Part shown: positions 588 through 10,983 of the stretch, one piece after another | Position numbering within the stretch: the stretch's first letter is position 1 | Layout: every line of letters begins with the position of its first letter | Origin: a virus | Taxonomy: Duplodnaviria; Heunggongvirae; Uroviricota; Caudoviricetes | Length of the DNA: 64,000 nt | Reading direction: 5' to 3' (one strand) | Virus record (IMG/VR): IMGVR_UViG_3300035034_002381 | Coordinates: 1 to 64,000 of that record | Made by a program: the position numbers and the translations under genes | Notes under the pieces: generated by a model | Seen by the model: the letters and a program-made list of their open reading frames with translations, nothing else | Database searches by the model: none | Told to the model about the DNA's origin: nothing

Positions 588-673
588 TGAAGTGTACCCG
601 AGCGGTTTGCAGGGACCAGACTGATATTCTGGGAGTATTTTACTCAACGTGGGTTCGAATCCCATCACTTCAA
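588..673 (+). tRNA. class II tRNA with Tyr-like D-arm but anticodon loop ctGATat
   Basis: perfect acceptor tgaagtg/cacttca, D ccc-gagcggtttgca-ggg, anticodon arm ccaga-ctgatat-tctgg, variable arm gagta-tttt-tactc, T gtggg-ttcgaat-cccat. Confidence 0.6.
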
Positions 674-679
674 CCATAT

Positions 680-4528: not shown

Positions 4529-6472
4529 ATGATGTCTACAAAAACAAAATCTTTATCAAAAGAAAGAGTTGCCTCTGTTTCAGGAGATAAACCAAGACTC
4601 CCAAGAACTCTTGAAACTCTTCAAGGTTTAAGAACAGCTCAAGGATTATCTGACGCGCAAATTGCGAATATGTTAGATAACGCATTATCAGAAACTTCAA
4701 GTAACCATATTATATATGTTCTTGAAAGATTAATGTTACACATTGGTGATGTGAGTCGACAACACAATATGTTGAAAGAATTGGGAATTAATTCTAAATC
4801 TGGTGGCGCACAAGAACGTGGGGTATTCCGATCTATTTTACGATGGTGGGAAAAAACTTTGCCTGAATCATTTGCAGAAAATCTTCGAGTATTCGCTGAA
4901 TTCTCAGTTTTGGAAAACTTGATGTTTTATGAACTTAAAACTGAAAGAGCAACTGGAAAATTAATTGGAAAGGAAATTTTGTTTCCTATGCCAAGTAAAG
5001 TACATGAATTTCTAGCGAACGAAATTCACAAAAATAGAAATGTGAATCTTATTGCTAAGCATTTACCAAAATATGACACTGGTAAAAGTCGAACCACTAA
5101 GAAAACCATGCATATTAAAGACGGTAAGGATAGTTTCATGTGGAAACTTCCTGAAGGTAAAGCTTGGGTTAAATTAAATGGTGATCTAATCGAAGGAGAA
5201 TCTGTTAAGATTACTCAAGGTGATGTAGTTTCATATCCTCGTGATAAATCTTCACATGTTTTAGAAAAACAAAGATTCGTTAATTCTTGGATTTCTAGTT
5301 TCTGTAAAGTTATGGGATGGTCAATTACTGATTATAACAATTTCCGTAAACAACAAAACACACCGGAACAAAAATTCTCAAGTAAACGTGTTTTAAACAT
5401 GCCGAAATCAGATTTCTGGAAAATGCTTGATGGTTTGACTTCTGGTCAAAGATACAGAGTTTCTAGAATGTTAGATTTCAATGCGGAAAAGTGGGGAGAA
5501 TTACCGAAATGGTATGATTTGTGGGAAGGTAACCAAGAAAAAGTAGCCGATAAACTTCGACAAGCTGCAGCTGATGGTGATACTGAAGCAACAGAAAAAT
5601 TGAAGAAAGAATTCAAGGTTAAATCTACTGGAAAAAACACTGTTGATTTATTGAAAGATATGTTAACAGGTAATCATGACGATAGATTCATTAACAACAC
5701 TTATCAATCTATGATTGAGAATATGGATATTGTTGCGAATGTTTTTCCAGTAATTGATGGTTCCGCATCTATGGATTGCCAAATTGGTGGAGGATGGAGT
5801 CCTCGAAGTTCTCGAAGTTCTACGGATAGACAACTTTCAAATAGAGCTGTCGCATATGCTATGGCAATTGCATTTTCTACTAGAAACCCAGTACCAGGAT
5901 TCCGTAACACGTTCGGATGGTTCTCCAGAAACTTTCACATTGTTGGAAAATCTAAGTATGTGAACAATGCACCTAATCAATACGTTGATTCTGGAAGTTA
6001 TACTAAAAAGGTTAATGAGTTCAATGTTTTATCTGAAACTAATACTTTCACTGAAAACTACTCAAACTTGAGAAAATCTGATCCAGGAGAAATATCATCT
6101 ACAAATATGGGTTCTGTGATTACTCACTTCACAAATTTAGTAGAAACTGGTAAATTTCATGTTGAGGATCTTCCATCTGCGTTACTTTTTATCACAGATA
6201 ATGAAAACAACACAGGAATTAGTCCGAAGGAAGCGTTGGCAATAGCTAACAAAATTGGATGGTCTCCATTGGTTATTTTCTGGGGGTTAACTAAAGTTCC
6301 AAGCAACATGATGAATCAGTATAAGGGAATTCCTAACTGCTTACTTGTTGGAGGATTTAATGAATCAGTACTTTCACAAGTACTTAGGGGTATTAAATCT
6401 GGTTCAGTTGATCCAGAGGATGAAATCTGGAGTATTGTCGAAAATAAAAGATATGCAGTAATTACTGAGTAA
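4529..6472 (+). CDS. Ro60/TROVE-like (or DUF2828-like) protein with C-terminal vWA domain
   Basis: 647-aa ORF; MIDAS-type DGSASM, SSTNMG, LLFITDNENNTG and VGGFNESVLSQV resemble, by eye, the Ro60 vWA motifs DVSASM, GGTDCS, TDNETFAG and CGFDTGALDV; helical N-terminal two thirds. Confidence 0.55.
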   Translation: MMSTKTKSLSKERVASVSGDKPRLPRTLETLQGLRTAQGLSDAQIANMLDNALSETSSNHIIYVLERLMLHIGDVSRQHNMLKELGINSKSGGAQERGVFRSILRWWEKTLPESFAENLRVFAEFSVLENLMFYELKTERATGKLIGKEILFPMPSKVHEFLANEIHKNRNVNLIAKHLPKYDTGKSRTTKKTMHIKDGKDSFMWKLPEGKAWVKLNGDLIEGESVKITQGDVVSYPRDKSSHVLEKQRFVNSWISSFCKVMGWSITDYNNFRKQQNTPEQKFSSKRVLNMPKSDFWKMLDGLTSGQRYRVSRMLDFNAEKWGELPKWYDLWEGNQEKVADKLRQAAADGDTEATEKLKKEFKVKSTGKNTVDLLKDMLTGNHDDRFINNTYQSMIENMDIVANVFPVIDGSASMDCQIGGGWSPRSSRSSTDRQLSNRAVAYAMAIAFSTRNPVPGFRNTFGWFSRNFHIVGKSKYVNNAPNQYVDSGSYTKKVNEFNVLSETNTFTENYSNLRKSDPGEISSTNMGSVITHFTNLVETGKFHVEDLPSALLFITDNENNTGISPKEALAIANKIGWSPLVIFWGLTKVPSNMMNQYKGIPNCLLVGGFNESVLSQVLRGIKSGSVDPEDEIWSIVENKRYAVITE

Positions 6473-9154: not shown

Positions 9155-9245
9155 GGAAGATAAAGCAGCTGCATTGGAGCGGCGACTAGCCTTGAAAACT
9201 AGGTCTCGGAGAAATCTGGGTGGGGTTCGAGTCCTCTGTCTTCCT
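9155..9245 (+). tRNA. tRNA-Ser(TGA)
   Basis: acceptor ggaagat/gtcttcc, anticodon loop ctTGAaa, long variable arm, T gggg-ttcgagt-cctc. Confidence 0.75.
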
Positions 9246-9277
9246 CAAAGTTTTAGTTCATTGACATATTAATATTA

Positions 9278-9361
9278 GAGGATGCGGTAATGGTGGTTAT
9301 TACAGTATCTTGGAAAGGTACCGATCGTTTATTCGGTCAGGGTTCGACTCCCTCATCCTCT
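9278..9361 (+). tRNA. tRNA-Ser(GGA)
   Basis: acceptor gaggatg/catcctc, anticodon arm gtatc-ttGGAaa-ggtac, variable arm gatcg-tttatt-cggtc, T aggg-ttcgact-ccct; ends uncertain by 1 nt. Confidence 0.75.
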
Positions 9362-9365
9362 GCTA

Positions 9366-9488
9366 TGTTCTTCTTAGAATAACTAATTTATGTAAATGTG
9401 AGTTCGAATCTCATCAAATGCTTTTAGCATCTGTAGCCAAATGGTTAGGCAATATACTTGAAATATATAACAAACGATTAGAAGAACA
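9366..9488 (+). ncRNA. circularly permuted tRNA-like element closed by a 9-bp leader-trailer helix
   Basis: order: helix 5' strand tgttcttct, CTTAGAATAACTAATTT, T-arm gtgag-ttcgaat-ctcat, capped acceptor hairpin caaatgc-tttta-gcatctg, ta, D-arm gcc-aaatggtta-ggc, anticodon arm atata-ctTGAaa-tatat, helix 3' strand agaagaaca. Confidence 0.5.
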
Positions 9489-9492
9489 ACAT

Positions 9493-9565
9493 GCTTCCAT
9501 AGTATAAAGGTTCATTATTCCTGTTTTGTAATCAGGCGATATCGGTTCGATTCCGATTGGGAGCT
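9493..9565 (+). tRNA. tRNA-Thr(TGT)
   Basis: acceptor gcttcca/tgggagc, anticodon loop ttTGTaa (31-39 T.T), T atcgg-ttcgatt-ccgat. Confidence 0.75.
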
Positions 9566-9714
9566 CAATGAATATGATGTTTATTTAGATCCTAAAAATG
9601 ATTATCTTATTGGTATAGATAGTAAAAAAATTGAAAAGGTCGAAGAATTGTATAATGTGCGTAATAATAGACAAGGATAATTTATCTTGGAATGATATTC
9701 AAAATAAAATAAAT

Positions 9715-9795
9715 GTTTCAGTGGTGGAATGGTAGACACGTCGGTCTTAGGAACCGATGCCGAAAGGCGTGAGAGTTCGAGTCTCTCCTGGAATA
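9715..9795 (+). tRNA. tRNA-Leu(TAG), canonical class II
   Basis: acceptor gtttcag/ctggaat, D gtgg-aatggtag-acac, anticodon arm tcggt-ctTAGga-accga, variable arm tgccgaaaggcgt, T gagag-ttcgagt-ctctc. Confidence 0.8.
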
Positions 9796-9796
9796 C

Positions 9797-9876
9797 ACTC
9801 TGGTGGATTAGGTAAATTGGTACAGCTAAACGGCTTAGACCCGTATCCCTTCTGGGTTCGAATCCCAGTCAGAGTA
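9797..9876 (+). tRNA. atypical 80-nt tRNA, anticodon TAG (Leu codons), expanded D region, short variable region
   Basis: acceptor actctgg/tcagagt, D region tggattaggtaaattggtacagctaa, anticodon arm acgg-ctTAGac-ccgt, T ctggg-ttcgaat-cccag, A73. Confidence 0.55.
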
Positions 9877-9881
9877 CAAAT

Positions 9882-9961
9882 GCTCCTGTGGTTTATGTAA
9901 ATTGGCACAGCTAAGCGGCTTAAACCCGCAACCTTTATGGGTTCGAGTCCCATCAGGAGTA
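9882..9961 (+). tRNA. atypical 80-nt tRNA, anticodon TAA (Leu codons), same family
   Basis: acceptor gctcctg/caggagt, D region tggtttatgtaaattggcacagctaa, anticodon arm gcgg-ctTAAac-ccgc, T atggg-ttcgagt-cccat, A73. Confidence 0.55.
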
Positions 9962-10056
9962 CAAAAGTTTATCAACGTCTTGAGTCAAGTTGGATGATGA
10001 CAAAAAGGCTAACGGCAGAAGTGAATCCATCGCACTGTGTTACATAAACTTTATCT

Positions 10057-10129
10057 GGCCAGGATTCTCAATTGGACGGGACTCTGTCTTCTAAACAGAT
10101 GTTTGTGGGTTCGAATCCCATCTTGGTCT
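10057..10129 (+). tRNA. tRNA-Arg(TCT)
   Basis: acceptor ggccagg/cttggtc, D tctc-aattggac-ggga, anticodon arm tctgt-ctTCTaa-acaga, T gtggg-ttcgaat-cccat. Confidence 0.85.
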
Positions 10130-10135
10130 CTAAAC

Positions 10136-10209
10136 GCAGGTATACCTAAGTGGTTTAAAGGAGCGGATTGCAAACCCGTTATTCATTGGTTCGAATCCAA
10201 TTACCTGCT
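10136..10209 (+). tRNA. tRNA-Cys(GCA)
   Basis: perfect acceptor gcaggta/tacctgc, anticodon loop ttGCAaa, T attgg-ttcgaat-ccaat. Confidence 0.8.
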
Positions 10210-10214
10210 CACTT

Positions 10215-10297
10215 GGAAGGTAACTTGATGGTGATAGAGGTAGTTTGCTAAACTACTGGCCGTTTACTCGGTCGAGGTTCGATTCCTCTGCCTTCCG
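10215..10297 (+). tRNA. tRNA-Ser(GCT)
   Basis: acceptor ggaaggt/gccttcc, anticodon arm gtagt-ttGCTaa-actac, variable arm ggccg-tttact-cggtc, discriminator G. Confidence 0.8.
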
Positions 10298-10301
10298 CTA
10301 T

Positions 10302-10379
10302 GCTCCTGTGGATTATGTAAAAGCACAGCTAACACCTTGAGGAGGTGATCCTTTGTGGGTTCGAGTCCCGCCAGGAGTA
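10302..10379 (+). tRNA. atypical 78-nt tRNA, anticodon GAG (Leu codons), same family
   Basis: acceptor gctcctg/caggagt, D region tggattatgtaaaagcacagctaa, anticodon arm cacc-ttGAGga-ggtg, T gtggg-ttcgagt-cccgc, A73. Confidence 0.55.
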
Positions 10380-10382
10380 CAA

Positions 10383-10476
10383 AGAAGCAAAGAGTTAGTT
10401 AGGTTAGACTGGCTTGTTATGTGGTGAAATTGGTAAACGCGAGCGCTTTGGTGCTTAGTAACCTTAACACTTCTTA
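10383..10476 (+). ncRNA. tRNA-derived fragment (Leu-type D-arm, no T-arm) flanked by 6-bp complementary ends
   Basis: aagaag/cttctt ends; internal gtggtgaaattggtaaacgc resembles the Leu D-arms at 9715 and 10788. Confidence 0.3.
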
Positions 10477-10479
10477 TTT

Positions 10480-10553
10480 GCTGAGTTAGTATAGTCGGTT
10501 TATTACGATACCCTGGTACGGTATTAACACCAGTTCGATTCTGGTACTCAGCT
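10480..10553 (+). tRNA. tRNA-Thr(GGT)
   Basis: perfect acceptor gctgagt/actcagc, anticodon arm atacc-ctGGTac-ggtat, T accag-ttcgatt-ctggt. Confidence 0.8.
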
Positions 10554-10565
10554 CATGAAAAATAT

Positions 10566-10645
10566 GCCTCTGTGGATTATGTAAATTGGCACAGCTAACG
10601 GTTTCAAACTCCGATCTTTTATGGGTTCGAATCCCATCAGAGGCA
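10566..10645 (+). tRNA. atypical 80-nt tRNA, anticodon CAA (Leu codons), same family
   Basis: acceptor gcctctg/cagaggc, D region tggattatgtaaattggcacagctaa, anticodon arm cgg(t)-ttCAAac-(t)ccg, T atggg-ttcgaat-cccat, A73. Confidence 0.5.
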
Positions 10646-10661
10646 CAAGTAGGAGAAATTT

Positions 10662-10746
10662 AGTCCAGTGGCGAAACAGGTATACGCACAAGATTTAAGC
10701 TCTTGCTTCCATTGAGGAATTGCGGGTTCGATTCCCGCCTGGATTA
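10662..10746 (+). tRNA. tRNA-Leu(TAA), canonical class II
   Basis: acceptor agtccag/ctggatt, D gcga-aacaggtata-cgc, anticodon arm caaga-ttTAAgc-tcttg, long variable arm, T gcggg-ttcgatt-cccgc. Confidence 0.8.
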
Positions 10747-10749
10747 CTA

Positions 10750-10781
10750 AGTTAGTACGGGTTCGATCCCCGTCTTGGCTA
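10750..10781 (+). ncRNA. second tRNA-like minihelix (acceptor-like stem plus T-arm)
   Basis: agttag/ttggct (wobble-rich) enclosing acggg-ttcgatc-cccgt; no D or anticodon arm. Confidence 0.35.
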
Positions 10782-10787
10782 CTAAAT

Positions 10788-10899
10788 TTGACCGTGGTGA
10801 AATTGGTAAACACACCCTTAAATCAGGGAGTATGAGAATATGTACTTGAAGCTGACGCAGAACATCATACATATGTAGGTTCGAATCCTATCGGTCGAA
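10788..10899 (+). ncRNA. 112-nt tRNA-like RNA (Leu-type D-arm) with a roughly 46-nt extra arm
   Basis: acceptor ttgaccg/cggtcga, D gtg-aaattggtaaa-cac, weak anticodon-position hairpin ccct-taaatc-aggg, extra hairpin atatgta...tacatat, T gtagg-ttcgaat-cctat. Confidence 0.45.
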
Positions 10900-10904
10900 C
10901 AAAT

Positions 10905-10978
<74 letters not shown>

Positions 10979-10983
10979 CTATC

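Follow-up and report, generated by a model that had tools for sequence, protein, structure and literature searches.

A core helix in place of the long variable arm in a family of putative phage leucine tRNAs

Why would a phage tRNA array that contains leucine transfer RNA (tRNA-Leu) genes of the ordinary bacterial type also contain four shorter genes with leucine anticodons and no long variable arm? The question is raised by a 64,000-nucleotide (nt) stretch of a Caudoviricetes record (IMG/VR IMGVR_UViG_3300035034_002381, positions 1 to 64,000; here referred to as the window). A first-pass annotation of this DNA had described four paralogous genes with the anticodons UAG, UAA, GAG and CAA (copies A to D, Table 1) and proposed that they form a second structural class of Leu-decoding tRNA. 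The four paralogs were recovered at the annotated positions (mean identity 85% in alignment), with Leu anticodons in 7-nt loops, A73 in all four, lengths of 80, 80, 78 and 80 nt and 26–27 nt between the acceptor and anticodon stems. R1, a covariance model trained on relatives, returned exactly the same boundaries at 77.9–97.7 bits, compared with less than 50 bits for ordinary tRNAs. Canonical long-arm tRNA-Leu(UAG) and tRNA-Leu(UAA) lie alongside and were found by both ARAGORN and Rfam, and a second class of Leu-anticodon tRNA, distinct from class II and coexisting with it, is supported. From comparative sequence analysis, we consider it likely that the four genes encode functional elongator tRNA-Leu and belong to a phage-restricted family with a remodelled core.

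The remodelling centers on a helix that was not part of the first-pass annotation, which had drawn a cloverleaf with an extended D arm and an unpaired variable loop of 6–7 nt. The nucleotide counts behind that drawing were correct, but the variable region is not an unpaired loop, and the drawing was rejected because nucleotides 9–11 covary with the ‘variable’ nucleotides. The resulting helix, referred to here as P2, consists of the 3–4 nt that follow U8 paired with the first 3–4 nt of the variable region. Its first sign was in copy B, where the third pair is swapped from A-U to U-A. In the 78 distinct sequences with letters at the columns concerned (80-nt numbering), pair 9-52 is G-C in 38 and G.U in 40, pair 10-51 is G-C in 59 and A-U in 18, and pair 11-50 is C-G in 30, A-U in 21, U-A in 18 and unpaired in nine, with compensatory changes in two of the three pairs. 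P2 was paired at 95.7%, compared with 74.2 ± 1.9% when the 3' strands were shuffled among sequences, and none of 10,000 shuffles reached the observed value. There are twelve combinations of P2 strands, the common ones each occurring in 6–15 loci, and unguided RNAalifold predicted the helix on the four window copies and again on 68 sequences. Neighboring positions follow suit: where an extra C comes after the anticodon stem, position 12 is G and a fourth P2 pair is formed. In the subtype found in the window the fifth anticodon-stem position is A.A, U12 can pair with the 3' A instead, and positions 12 and 13 are both U in all 29 sequences that have A.A as the top anticodon pair. On this covariation, P2 is very probably a real helix.

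The nucleotides after U8 therefore pair differently from those of the standard four-way cloverleaf, covarying with the variable region rather than with the D region's 3' side. The predicted order is an acceptor stem of 7 base pairs (bp), U8, the P2 5' strand (9–11 or 9–12), 2–3 linker nucleotides, the D arm, linker A32, an anticodon stem of 5 bp, or 4 bp in the window subtype, with its 7-nt loop, the P2 3' strand (50–52 or 49–52), a 3-nt linker Y-U-U, a 5-bp T arm and A73. Seven nucleotides lie between the acceptor and D stems, and all members have 6 nt between the anticodon and T stems, except for three with 7. Five helices are thus predicted and, because P2 encloses the D and anticodon arms, two three-way junctions would replace the usual four-way junction, P2 standing where ordinary bacterial tRNA-Leu has its long variable arm. 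No break interrupts the 3' strand between the anticodon stem and P2, so that 8–9 pairs could stack coaxially. In three dimensions the D arm could lie alongside P2, the two stems being equal in length, and still bring G18G19 to the T loop.

Each helix of this fold shows compensatory changes among 79 distinct homologs, and the covariation score is 0.75, compared with 0.21 in shuffles (0.75 being reached in 0 of 500). The shared acceptor and T arms of the first-pass annotation were upheld: all four window copies have a 7-bp acceptor stem, a 5-bp covarying T stem, the T loop UUCGAnU and a 7-nt anticodon loop. Family-wide, pairing reaches 98.7% in the acceptor stems and 99.7% in the T stems, compensatory changes occurring in both, and the T loop is nearly invariant. 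U33 is present in 76 of the 78 sequences with a base at that position, and position 37 is A in 77 of 79 sequences and G in the other two. The 4-bp anticodon stems covary in the window as had been described (ACGG/CCGU, GCGG/CCGC, CACC/GGUG and CGG(U)/(U)CCG), but four pairs are not a family trait, since 49 of the 79 distinct relatives have the standard fifth pair. The D arm has the format of class II tRNA-Leu, with a 3-pair stem (15–17/29–31) and an 11-nt loop AAAUUGGYACA. Pair 16-30 is G-C in 71 sequences, A-U in five, G.U in two and U-A in one; pair 17-29 is U.G in 70 and C-G in nine (G-C in Pseudomonas phage PHB09); and pair 15-31 is U.U in 71, G-C in six and A-U and G.U in one each. This stem was preferred over a UGU/ACA hairpin (15–17 with 26–28), in which variation breaks pairs and is never compensated. 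An RNAalifold hairpin (23–25/29–31) was also rejected; it would tie up G18G19, and in none of its pairs have both sides changed.

How widely this fold is shared was assessed from homologs, the first true ones coming from exact-motif scans on the conserved D region of IMG/VR and metagenome contigs; looser motif scans returned mostly chance matches inside open reading frames (ORFs) and were filtered. A covariance model built from 68 unique sequences and run on 47 non-redundant loci gave 82 matches at 62–101 bits, and by this model the family comprises at least 79 distinct sequences. Short-loop phage tRNA-Leu were next at 44–58 bits. Nearly all members are exactly 80 nt long, most relatives encode CCA, and the contigs that carry them include some of 249–379 kb. 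The anticodons are Leu in 79 of 79 (UAG 26, CAA 24, UAA 21, CAG 4, GAG 3 and AAG 1). A structure-only descriptor, constrained in sequence only at the T loop and U33, found 64 instances in 2.58 Mb of fetched loci that also hold hundreds of other tRNAs; all 64 have Leu anticodons, in a sample biased by the choice of loci through the family itself. In two exact-motif scans of bacterial and archaeal genomes (one for each of 185,579 species) no member was found; the lone match was a chance one in a non-tRNA region, and divergent copies could escape exact motifs. Within the limits of such scans, the family appears to be phage-restricted.

These data bear on the alternative that the four genes are decaying tRNA pseudogenes or misread class II tRNA-Leu. 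Degenerate tRNA-like fragments in the array and the anticodon-stem mismatches of the window copies would suit decay, but 79 distinct sequences from very different phages keep their length and show compensatory change in every helix. Realignment into class II, which the first-pass annotation had named as its own possible undoing, was ruled out: the long variable arm is absent and the few nucleotides between the anticodon and T stems leave no room for one. Helix covariation, the structure-only descriptor and the missing arm refute this alternative as far as sequence analysis goes, and we regard it as the least credible of those considered.

Members of the family have largely gone unnoticed by annotation. 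When ARAGORN was run on 78 distinct members with CCA appended, 62 were undetected, nine were called Leu with a shifted 5' end, six were given another isotype (Ser, Pyl, Val, Arg or Thr) and one was correct, so that 77 of 78 were missed or mis-assigned. The ARAGORN check proposed with the first-pass annotation succeeded in the window for copy C and failed for copies A, B and D, and against the Rfam RF00005 gathering threshold of 29 bits, copies B and C score above, copy A gives a partial match below and copy D has no match on its strand (Table 1). A megablast search of the array against 50,697 phage records had no match, and members in cultured phages were found with short blastn queries. The member in Synechococcus phage BUCT-ZZ01 is unannotated, that in Rhizobium phage RHph_I1_18 lies in an unannotated gap between tRNA-Pro and tRNA-Tyr, and that in PHB09 is annotated as a hypothetical protein between tRNA-His and tRNA-Cys. 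Since such genes are missed or misannotated, phage tRNA complements and the codon-usage analyses based on them are incomplete. The three phages also offer culturable phage–host pairs for experiments. A full-text literature search, with most subscription journals outside its reach, found no description of the P2 fold or of a phage tRNA-Leu class without the long arm; the layout is undescribed in the literature searched, and a prior description elsewhere is possible.

Whether RNAs with this fold could be leucylated was considered next to what is reported for leucyl-tRNA synthetase (LeuRS). The elements most important for the Escherichia coli enzyme are A73, A14, A15-U48, G18/G19 with U55/C56, and U54-A58 (PMC6614811). 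With canonical positions assigned from the D-loop alignment, U8, A14, A15, U48, G18G19, U54, U55, C56, A58 and A73 each occur in at least 78 of 79 family sequences, if not in all. Because the LeuRS elements are kept, G3:U70 occurs in only one of 78 sequences and the long arm of the tRNA-Ser type is absent, charging by LeuRS would be the economical reading. The proposed route is that the RNAs would be cut out of a polycistronic tRNA array, gain the CCA end that is missing from the window genes, and be leucylated by the host LeuRS, without anticodon reading, through A73 and the D/T-loop tertiary features. They would then decode all six Leu codons, which the four window anticodons cover, UAA and CAA reading UUR and UAG and GAG reading CUN. 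Expression, an L-shape, charging and ribosome use of the P2-type tRNAs are what we infer from these sequence features.

The same features bear on a different fate, in which a phage or host enzyme charges these tRNAs with another amino acid and Leu codons are recoded, as with allo-tRNAs; different charging was one of the two functions suggested in the first-pass annotation. A switch of identity is conceivable because the anticodon is not read by LeuRS, SerRS or AlaRS, and allo-tRNAs with Leu anticodons insert serine (PMC5389517). Such recoding is very improbable in view of the retained LeuRS elements, the lack of the SerRS-type arm, the near absence of G3:U70 and the 7/5 acceptor/T branch. Moreover, no gene for a phage LeuRS or other synthetase was found among 21 larger or array-adjacent window ORFs scanned, and with Leu at 8% of codons in phage proteins, reassigning the six Leu codons together would be lethal.

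Several observations weigh against functional elongator tRNAs with the proposed fold. The short-loop tRNA-Leu(CAA) from Streptomyces coelicolor is reported not to be a substrate of the E. coli LeuRS (PMC6614811), and therefore acceptance of an armless tRNA-Leu by every host LeuRS cannot be assumed. In the window copies the top position of the anticodon stem is A.A, and CCA is not encoded, A73 being followed by CAA in all four. In copy C the D loop is 2 nt shorter and one G of G18G19 is left, and in copy D the anticodon stem has U.U adjoining the loop. The third P2 pair is A.A or A.C in nine of 78 sequences, all of the GGAUAAU subtype (with ACC, ACU or CCC), although in seven of the nine U12 could take over the pairing, A11 being bulged out. 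The D stem, typically U.U, G-C and U.G, is weak. The energy of the proposed fold averages −17.4 kcal/mol, about 8 above the minimum free energy (MFE) of −25.3 kcal/mol, and P2 is part of the MFE structure in only four of 78 sequences, whereas for three of the window's canonical tRNAs the gap to the MFE is no more than about 2.5 kcal/mol. Tertiary contacts and modifications would be needed to hold such a fold. The homolog alignments were motif-seeded and partly model-fitted, which favors the model, but they are nearly gap-free and the bias is small. The single-sequence MFE folds were rejected as alternatives, being unrelated and unconserved structures.

A fold that is marginal by nearest-neighbor energy, together with the rejection of most sequences by tRNA finders and the presence of a tRNA-mimic (Y-RNA-like) element in the same array, could also be expected of tRNA-like decoys or regulators acting outside translation, for example as sponges for nucleases, synthetases or modification enzymes. 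This we consider improbable, given the open acceptor ends with invariant A73 and, in most relatives, encoded CCA, the 7-nt loops with nearly universal U33, and six different Leu anticodons, which fill gaps left by the phage's other Leu tRNAs; a decoy would have no need of full isoacceptor sets.

The use of anticodons across loci points in the same direction as elongator function. Family members lie in tRNA arrays, a few nucleotides from their neighbors, and at most other phage loci they supply anticodons lacking among the other Leu tRNAs of the locus rather than duplicating them. In the stretches examined, locus L239 has family members for UAG, UAA and CAA beside a short-loop (type I) CAG and a class II GAG tRNA; L001 has the same three family anticodons beside class II AAG; and L002 combines family UAA and CAA with class II UAG. 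In PHB09 the family UAG gene is the only CUN reader, in a stretch with two short UAA tRNAs, and in RHph_I1_18 it is accompanied by no other Leu tRNA in a 9-kb stretch. Such anticodon sets fit working decoders better than decoys. Within the Leu codons of the window, UUA accounts for 47.5%, CUU for 21%, UUG for 13.6% and CUA for 10.6%.

In the window itself, the UAG and UAA copies duplicate class II anticodons, which leaves room for a second selective reason. As a refinement of elongator function, the P2 fold may have been selected to escape an attack on class II tRNA-Leu, either by a host anticodon nuclease or other tRNA-targeting defence or through phage-induced depletion of host tRNA-Leu; nuclease resistance had been put forward in the first-pass annotation. 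Carrying both forms for UAG and UAA is not required by pure codon supply, and the family was found in phage and metagenome sequence and not in the cellular genomes scanned. All 26 UAG members have A37, in contrast to the G37 of class II CUN readers, including that of the window. Evasion of anticodon nucleases by phage tRNAs is established for other isotypes. The known evasive mutations, however, lie in the anticodon loop, unlike the change in the core seen here, no tRNA-Leu-targeting nuclease or defence gene was tied to the loci in this analysis, and elsewhere the family mostly complements the phage Leu tRNAs. We therefore put escape forward as a possibility on the unlikely side. To a similarly limited degree, we entertain the broader idea that a new tRNA topology works on bacterial ribosomes and has been kept for Leu since its supply escapes defence, host tRNA-Leu depletion or a dependence on 1-methylguanosine at position 37 (m1G37).

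How does the P2 type relate to known tRNAs? With bacterial class II tRNA-Leu it shares the Leu anticodons, A73, frequent G1.U72, a total of five helices, the 3-pair D stem, an 11-nt D loop with the AAUUGG motif, U8-A14, A15-U48, G18G19 and the 7/5 acceptor/T branch. It differs in lacking the hairpin variable arm (more than 10 nt), with only 6 nt between the anticodon and T stems, in forming its fifth helix in trans from a 5-nt insertion after U8/G9 and variable-region nucleotides, and in having A37 for G37 in UAG members.

In the literature searched, the type I tRNA-Leu(CAA) of S. coelicolor comes closest; mitochondrial (mt) tRNA-Leu is another type I example, and type I tRNA-Leu has been treated as rare in bacteria (PMC6614811). 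We found type I tRNA-Leu of 74–77 nt with a 5-nt variable loop in the cultured phages Vibrio JSF10, T5-like Escherichia EscoHU1, Erwinia phiEa21-4, Acinetobacter Aci05 and Aeromonas AhSzw-1, the last of these unannotated. Like the P2 type, they lack the long arm and have the same T arm, A73, G1.U72, D loop and A37, and they are the next-best matches of the family model. They differ in having an ordinary cloverleaf with a 2-nt connector, a Watson–Crick D stem, an unpaired 5-nt variable loop and no P2, and tRNA finders detect and annotate them while mostly missing the P2 type. In alignment, the P2 type corresponds to type I with 5 nt added after G9 and 1 nt in the variable region. Phage type I tRNA-Leu are probably the evolutionary neighbors of the family, and a plausible history would be loss of the long arm followed by gain of an insertion that pairs with the variable loop. 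As a separate observation, type I tRNA-Leu are common in cultured T5-like, Felix-O1-like and Saclayvirus phages, where most are annotated as plain tRNA-Leu; the loci of the five phages are L303 (JSF10), L305 (Aci05), L308 (phiEa21-4), L309 (EscoHU1) and L310 (AhSzw-1), and further examples are L278:690-763, L239:3850-3923 and L243:1999-2073. Carriers include phages of E. coli, whose LeuRS reportedly rejects the Streptomyces type I tRNA.

Other non-canonical tRNAs, some of them in phages, also depart from the standard cloverleaf in ways compatible with translation, and tRNA-Pyl and mt-tRNA-Ser(UCN) resemble the family in their spacing, one nucleotide following the acceptor stem and 3 nt preceding the T stem. 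These tRNAs have altered helix lengths and keep the four-way junction, whereas the family has a normal 7/5 branch, keeps G18G19 and the T loop and changes the topology. Allo-tRNAs and tRNA-Sec-like molecules have 8/4, 9/3 or 8/5 branches, a long arm and a 6-bp D stem with a tetraloop, in contrast to the 7/5 branch, missing long arm, 3-pair D stem and 11-nt loop of the family. In mt-tRNAs that lack the D arm, such as mt-tRNA-Ser(AGY), connector and variable-region nucleotides pair and lengthen the helix stacked on the anticodon stem. P2 and the anticodon stem are similar in forming 8–9 contiguous pairs on the 3' strand, but in the family the D arm is complete, has G18G19 and interrupts the 5' strand where P2 meets the anticodon stem. 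Y RNAs of the YrlA type have a closed acceptor-like stem, a T arm that precedes the D arm and ends that form the Ro-binding stem, unlike the open acceptor ends with A73 and the usual D, anticodon and T arm order of the four genes. If P2-type tRNAs are indeed charged and used, they would add a new secondary-structure layout to the few natural exceptions to the cloverleaf, and the long arm of bacterial tRNA-Leu would be replaceable by a helix between distant strands with the LeuRS elements kept. The family is also a compact natural scaffold that may interest engineers of LeuRS/tRNA pairs.

The window has a low G+C content of about 32%, with every gene on the + strand, and its products include a Gp23-type major capsid protein and a prohead protease. 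Because its capsid protein is 40–43% identical to those of Lak megaphages and an uncultured 462-kb phage, the window comes from a large, uncultured T4-like or Lak-like phage. Three tRNA gene clusters are present, and the four genes belong to the one at approximately 9155–10979, where copy A begins at the base right after the end of class II tRNA-Leu(UAG) and copy B 5 nt past copy A. A near-identical relative (L284) has the whole array; the place of copy A is taken by a divergent 78-nt version (L284:2633-2710, 62 bits) with an irregular anticodon loop, which suggests recent replacement or decay of one copy.

Table 1. Coordinates of the four P2-type genes and of other features of the window, with the elements and scores recorded for each.
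Feature	Position	Strand	Length (nt)	P2 strands (5' with 3')	Other elements	Detection
tRNA-Ile(GAU)	588–676	+	89		Unusually long for the isotype	ARAGORN
647-aa protein, likely Ro60/Rsr-like	4529–6472	+			Between tRNA clusters
Weak tRNA-Sec match	9155–9244	+				Sole match tRNA-Sec model, 30.9 bits (threshold 47)
Probable Y-RNA-like tRNA mimic candidate	9364–9492	+	129		T arm 9397–9413; outer flanks ~9366–9376 and 9482–9490 pair together	Rfam YrlA model, 16 bits, E 0.47, below threshold
Class II tRNA-Leu(UAG)	9715–9796	+			Long variable arm; G37	ARAGORN; Rfam RF00005 54.4 bits
P2-type tRNA-Leu(UAG), copy A	9797–9876	+	80	9805–9808 (GGAU) with 9845–9848 (AUCC), directly 3' of anticodon stem	Acceptor 9797–9803/9869–9875; U8 9804; D region 9809–9829; anticodon stem 9830–9833/9841–9844; loop CUUAGAC 9834–9840; linker CUU; T arm 9852–9868; A73 9876	R1 89.2 bits; Rfam tRNA partial 21.9 bits; no ARAGORN call
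P2-type tRNA-Leu(UAA), copy B	9882–9961	+	80	9890–9893 (GGUU) with 9930–9933 (AACC)	D stem 9896–9898 with 9910–9912; anticodon loop 9919–9925	R1 97.7 bits; Rfam tRNA 33.7 bits; no ARAGORN call
P2-type tRNA-Leu(GAG), copy C	10302–10379	+	78	10310–10313 (GGAU) with 10348–10351 (AUCC)	G37	R1 77.9 bits; Rfam 30.2 bits; ARAGORN Leu GAG, anticodon at position 38
Spacer, could be remnant or further tRNA-like RNA	10380–10479	+			tRNA-Leu-like D arm; no T arm
P2-type tRNA-Leu(CAA), copy D	10566–10645	+	80	10574–10577 (GGAU) with 10614–10617 (AUCU)	Anticodon stem 10599–10602/10610–10613	R1 94.2 bits; no Rfam tRNA match on + strand; no ARAGORN call
Class II tRNA-Leu(UAA)	10662–10747	+				ARAGORN; Rfam RF00005 52.6 bits
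Orphan T arm and 3' acceptor strand, could be remnant or further tRNA-like RNA	10748–10787	+			Adjoins 3' end of tRNA-Leu(UAA)
tRNA-like gene	10788–10899	+			D arm like class II tRNA-Leu	Rfam tRNA 35.7 bits; no ARAGORN call

Several other elements of the array have tRNA-like parts. The spacer between copies C and D listed in Table 1 is closed by a long-range stem, AAGAAG...UUAGGUUA with UAACCUUAA...CUUCUU. An Rfam search of this spacer and of the orphan T arm gave no convincing match. The tRNA-like gene starting at 10788 has an irregular anticodon region, CCC UUAAAUCA GGG, with what looks like an 8-nt loop, and about 45 nt are inserted at the place of the variable arm. Stop codons of 39 long ORFs in the window are TAA in 32, TGA in six and TAG in one. 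In several related loci and in RHph_I1_18, tRNAs with the anticodon CUA were found (L247:1591-1664, L238:6968-7040 and L311:5912-5989); they are labelled ‘tRNA-Pyl’ by ARAGORN or in the record annotation and are possible amber suppressors.

The Y-RNA-like element lies between tRNA-Ser and tRNA-Thr and has its tRNA parts permuted, the T arm being followed by a closed acceptor-like stem (CAAAUGC uuua GCAUCUG, six of seven pairs), a D arm and an anticodon-like hairpin. The Rfam YrlA model aligned to its T arm, closed stem and D arm in the same layout (Table 1), and a phage tRNA mimic of the Y-RNA-like kind is the probable identity of the element. L284 has an identical copy, and no other relatives came from one motif scan of viral contigs. 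The 647-aa protein had no match in a Pfam search and matched PHROG 850 (‘RNA-binding protein’, 8e-16). Its MIDAS-like motif, DGSGSM, is invariant. Its 95 homologs, on contigs of up to 448 kb, are all unnamed or hypothetical. The top Foldseek matches of its AlphaFold model (predicted local distance difference test score, pLDDT, 83.8) were Deinococcus Rsr (2nvo), Xenopus Ro (1yvr, 1yvp) and human Ro60 (9nen), with E values of 4e-5 to 1e-4, and on this modelled structure the protein is likely Ro60/Rsr-like and would be a natural partner of the Y-RNA-like element.

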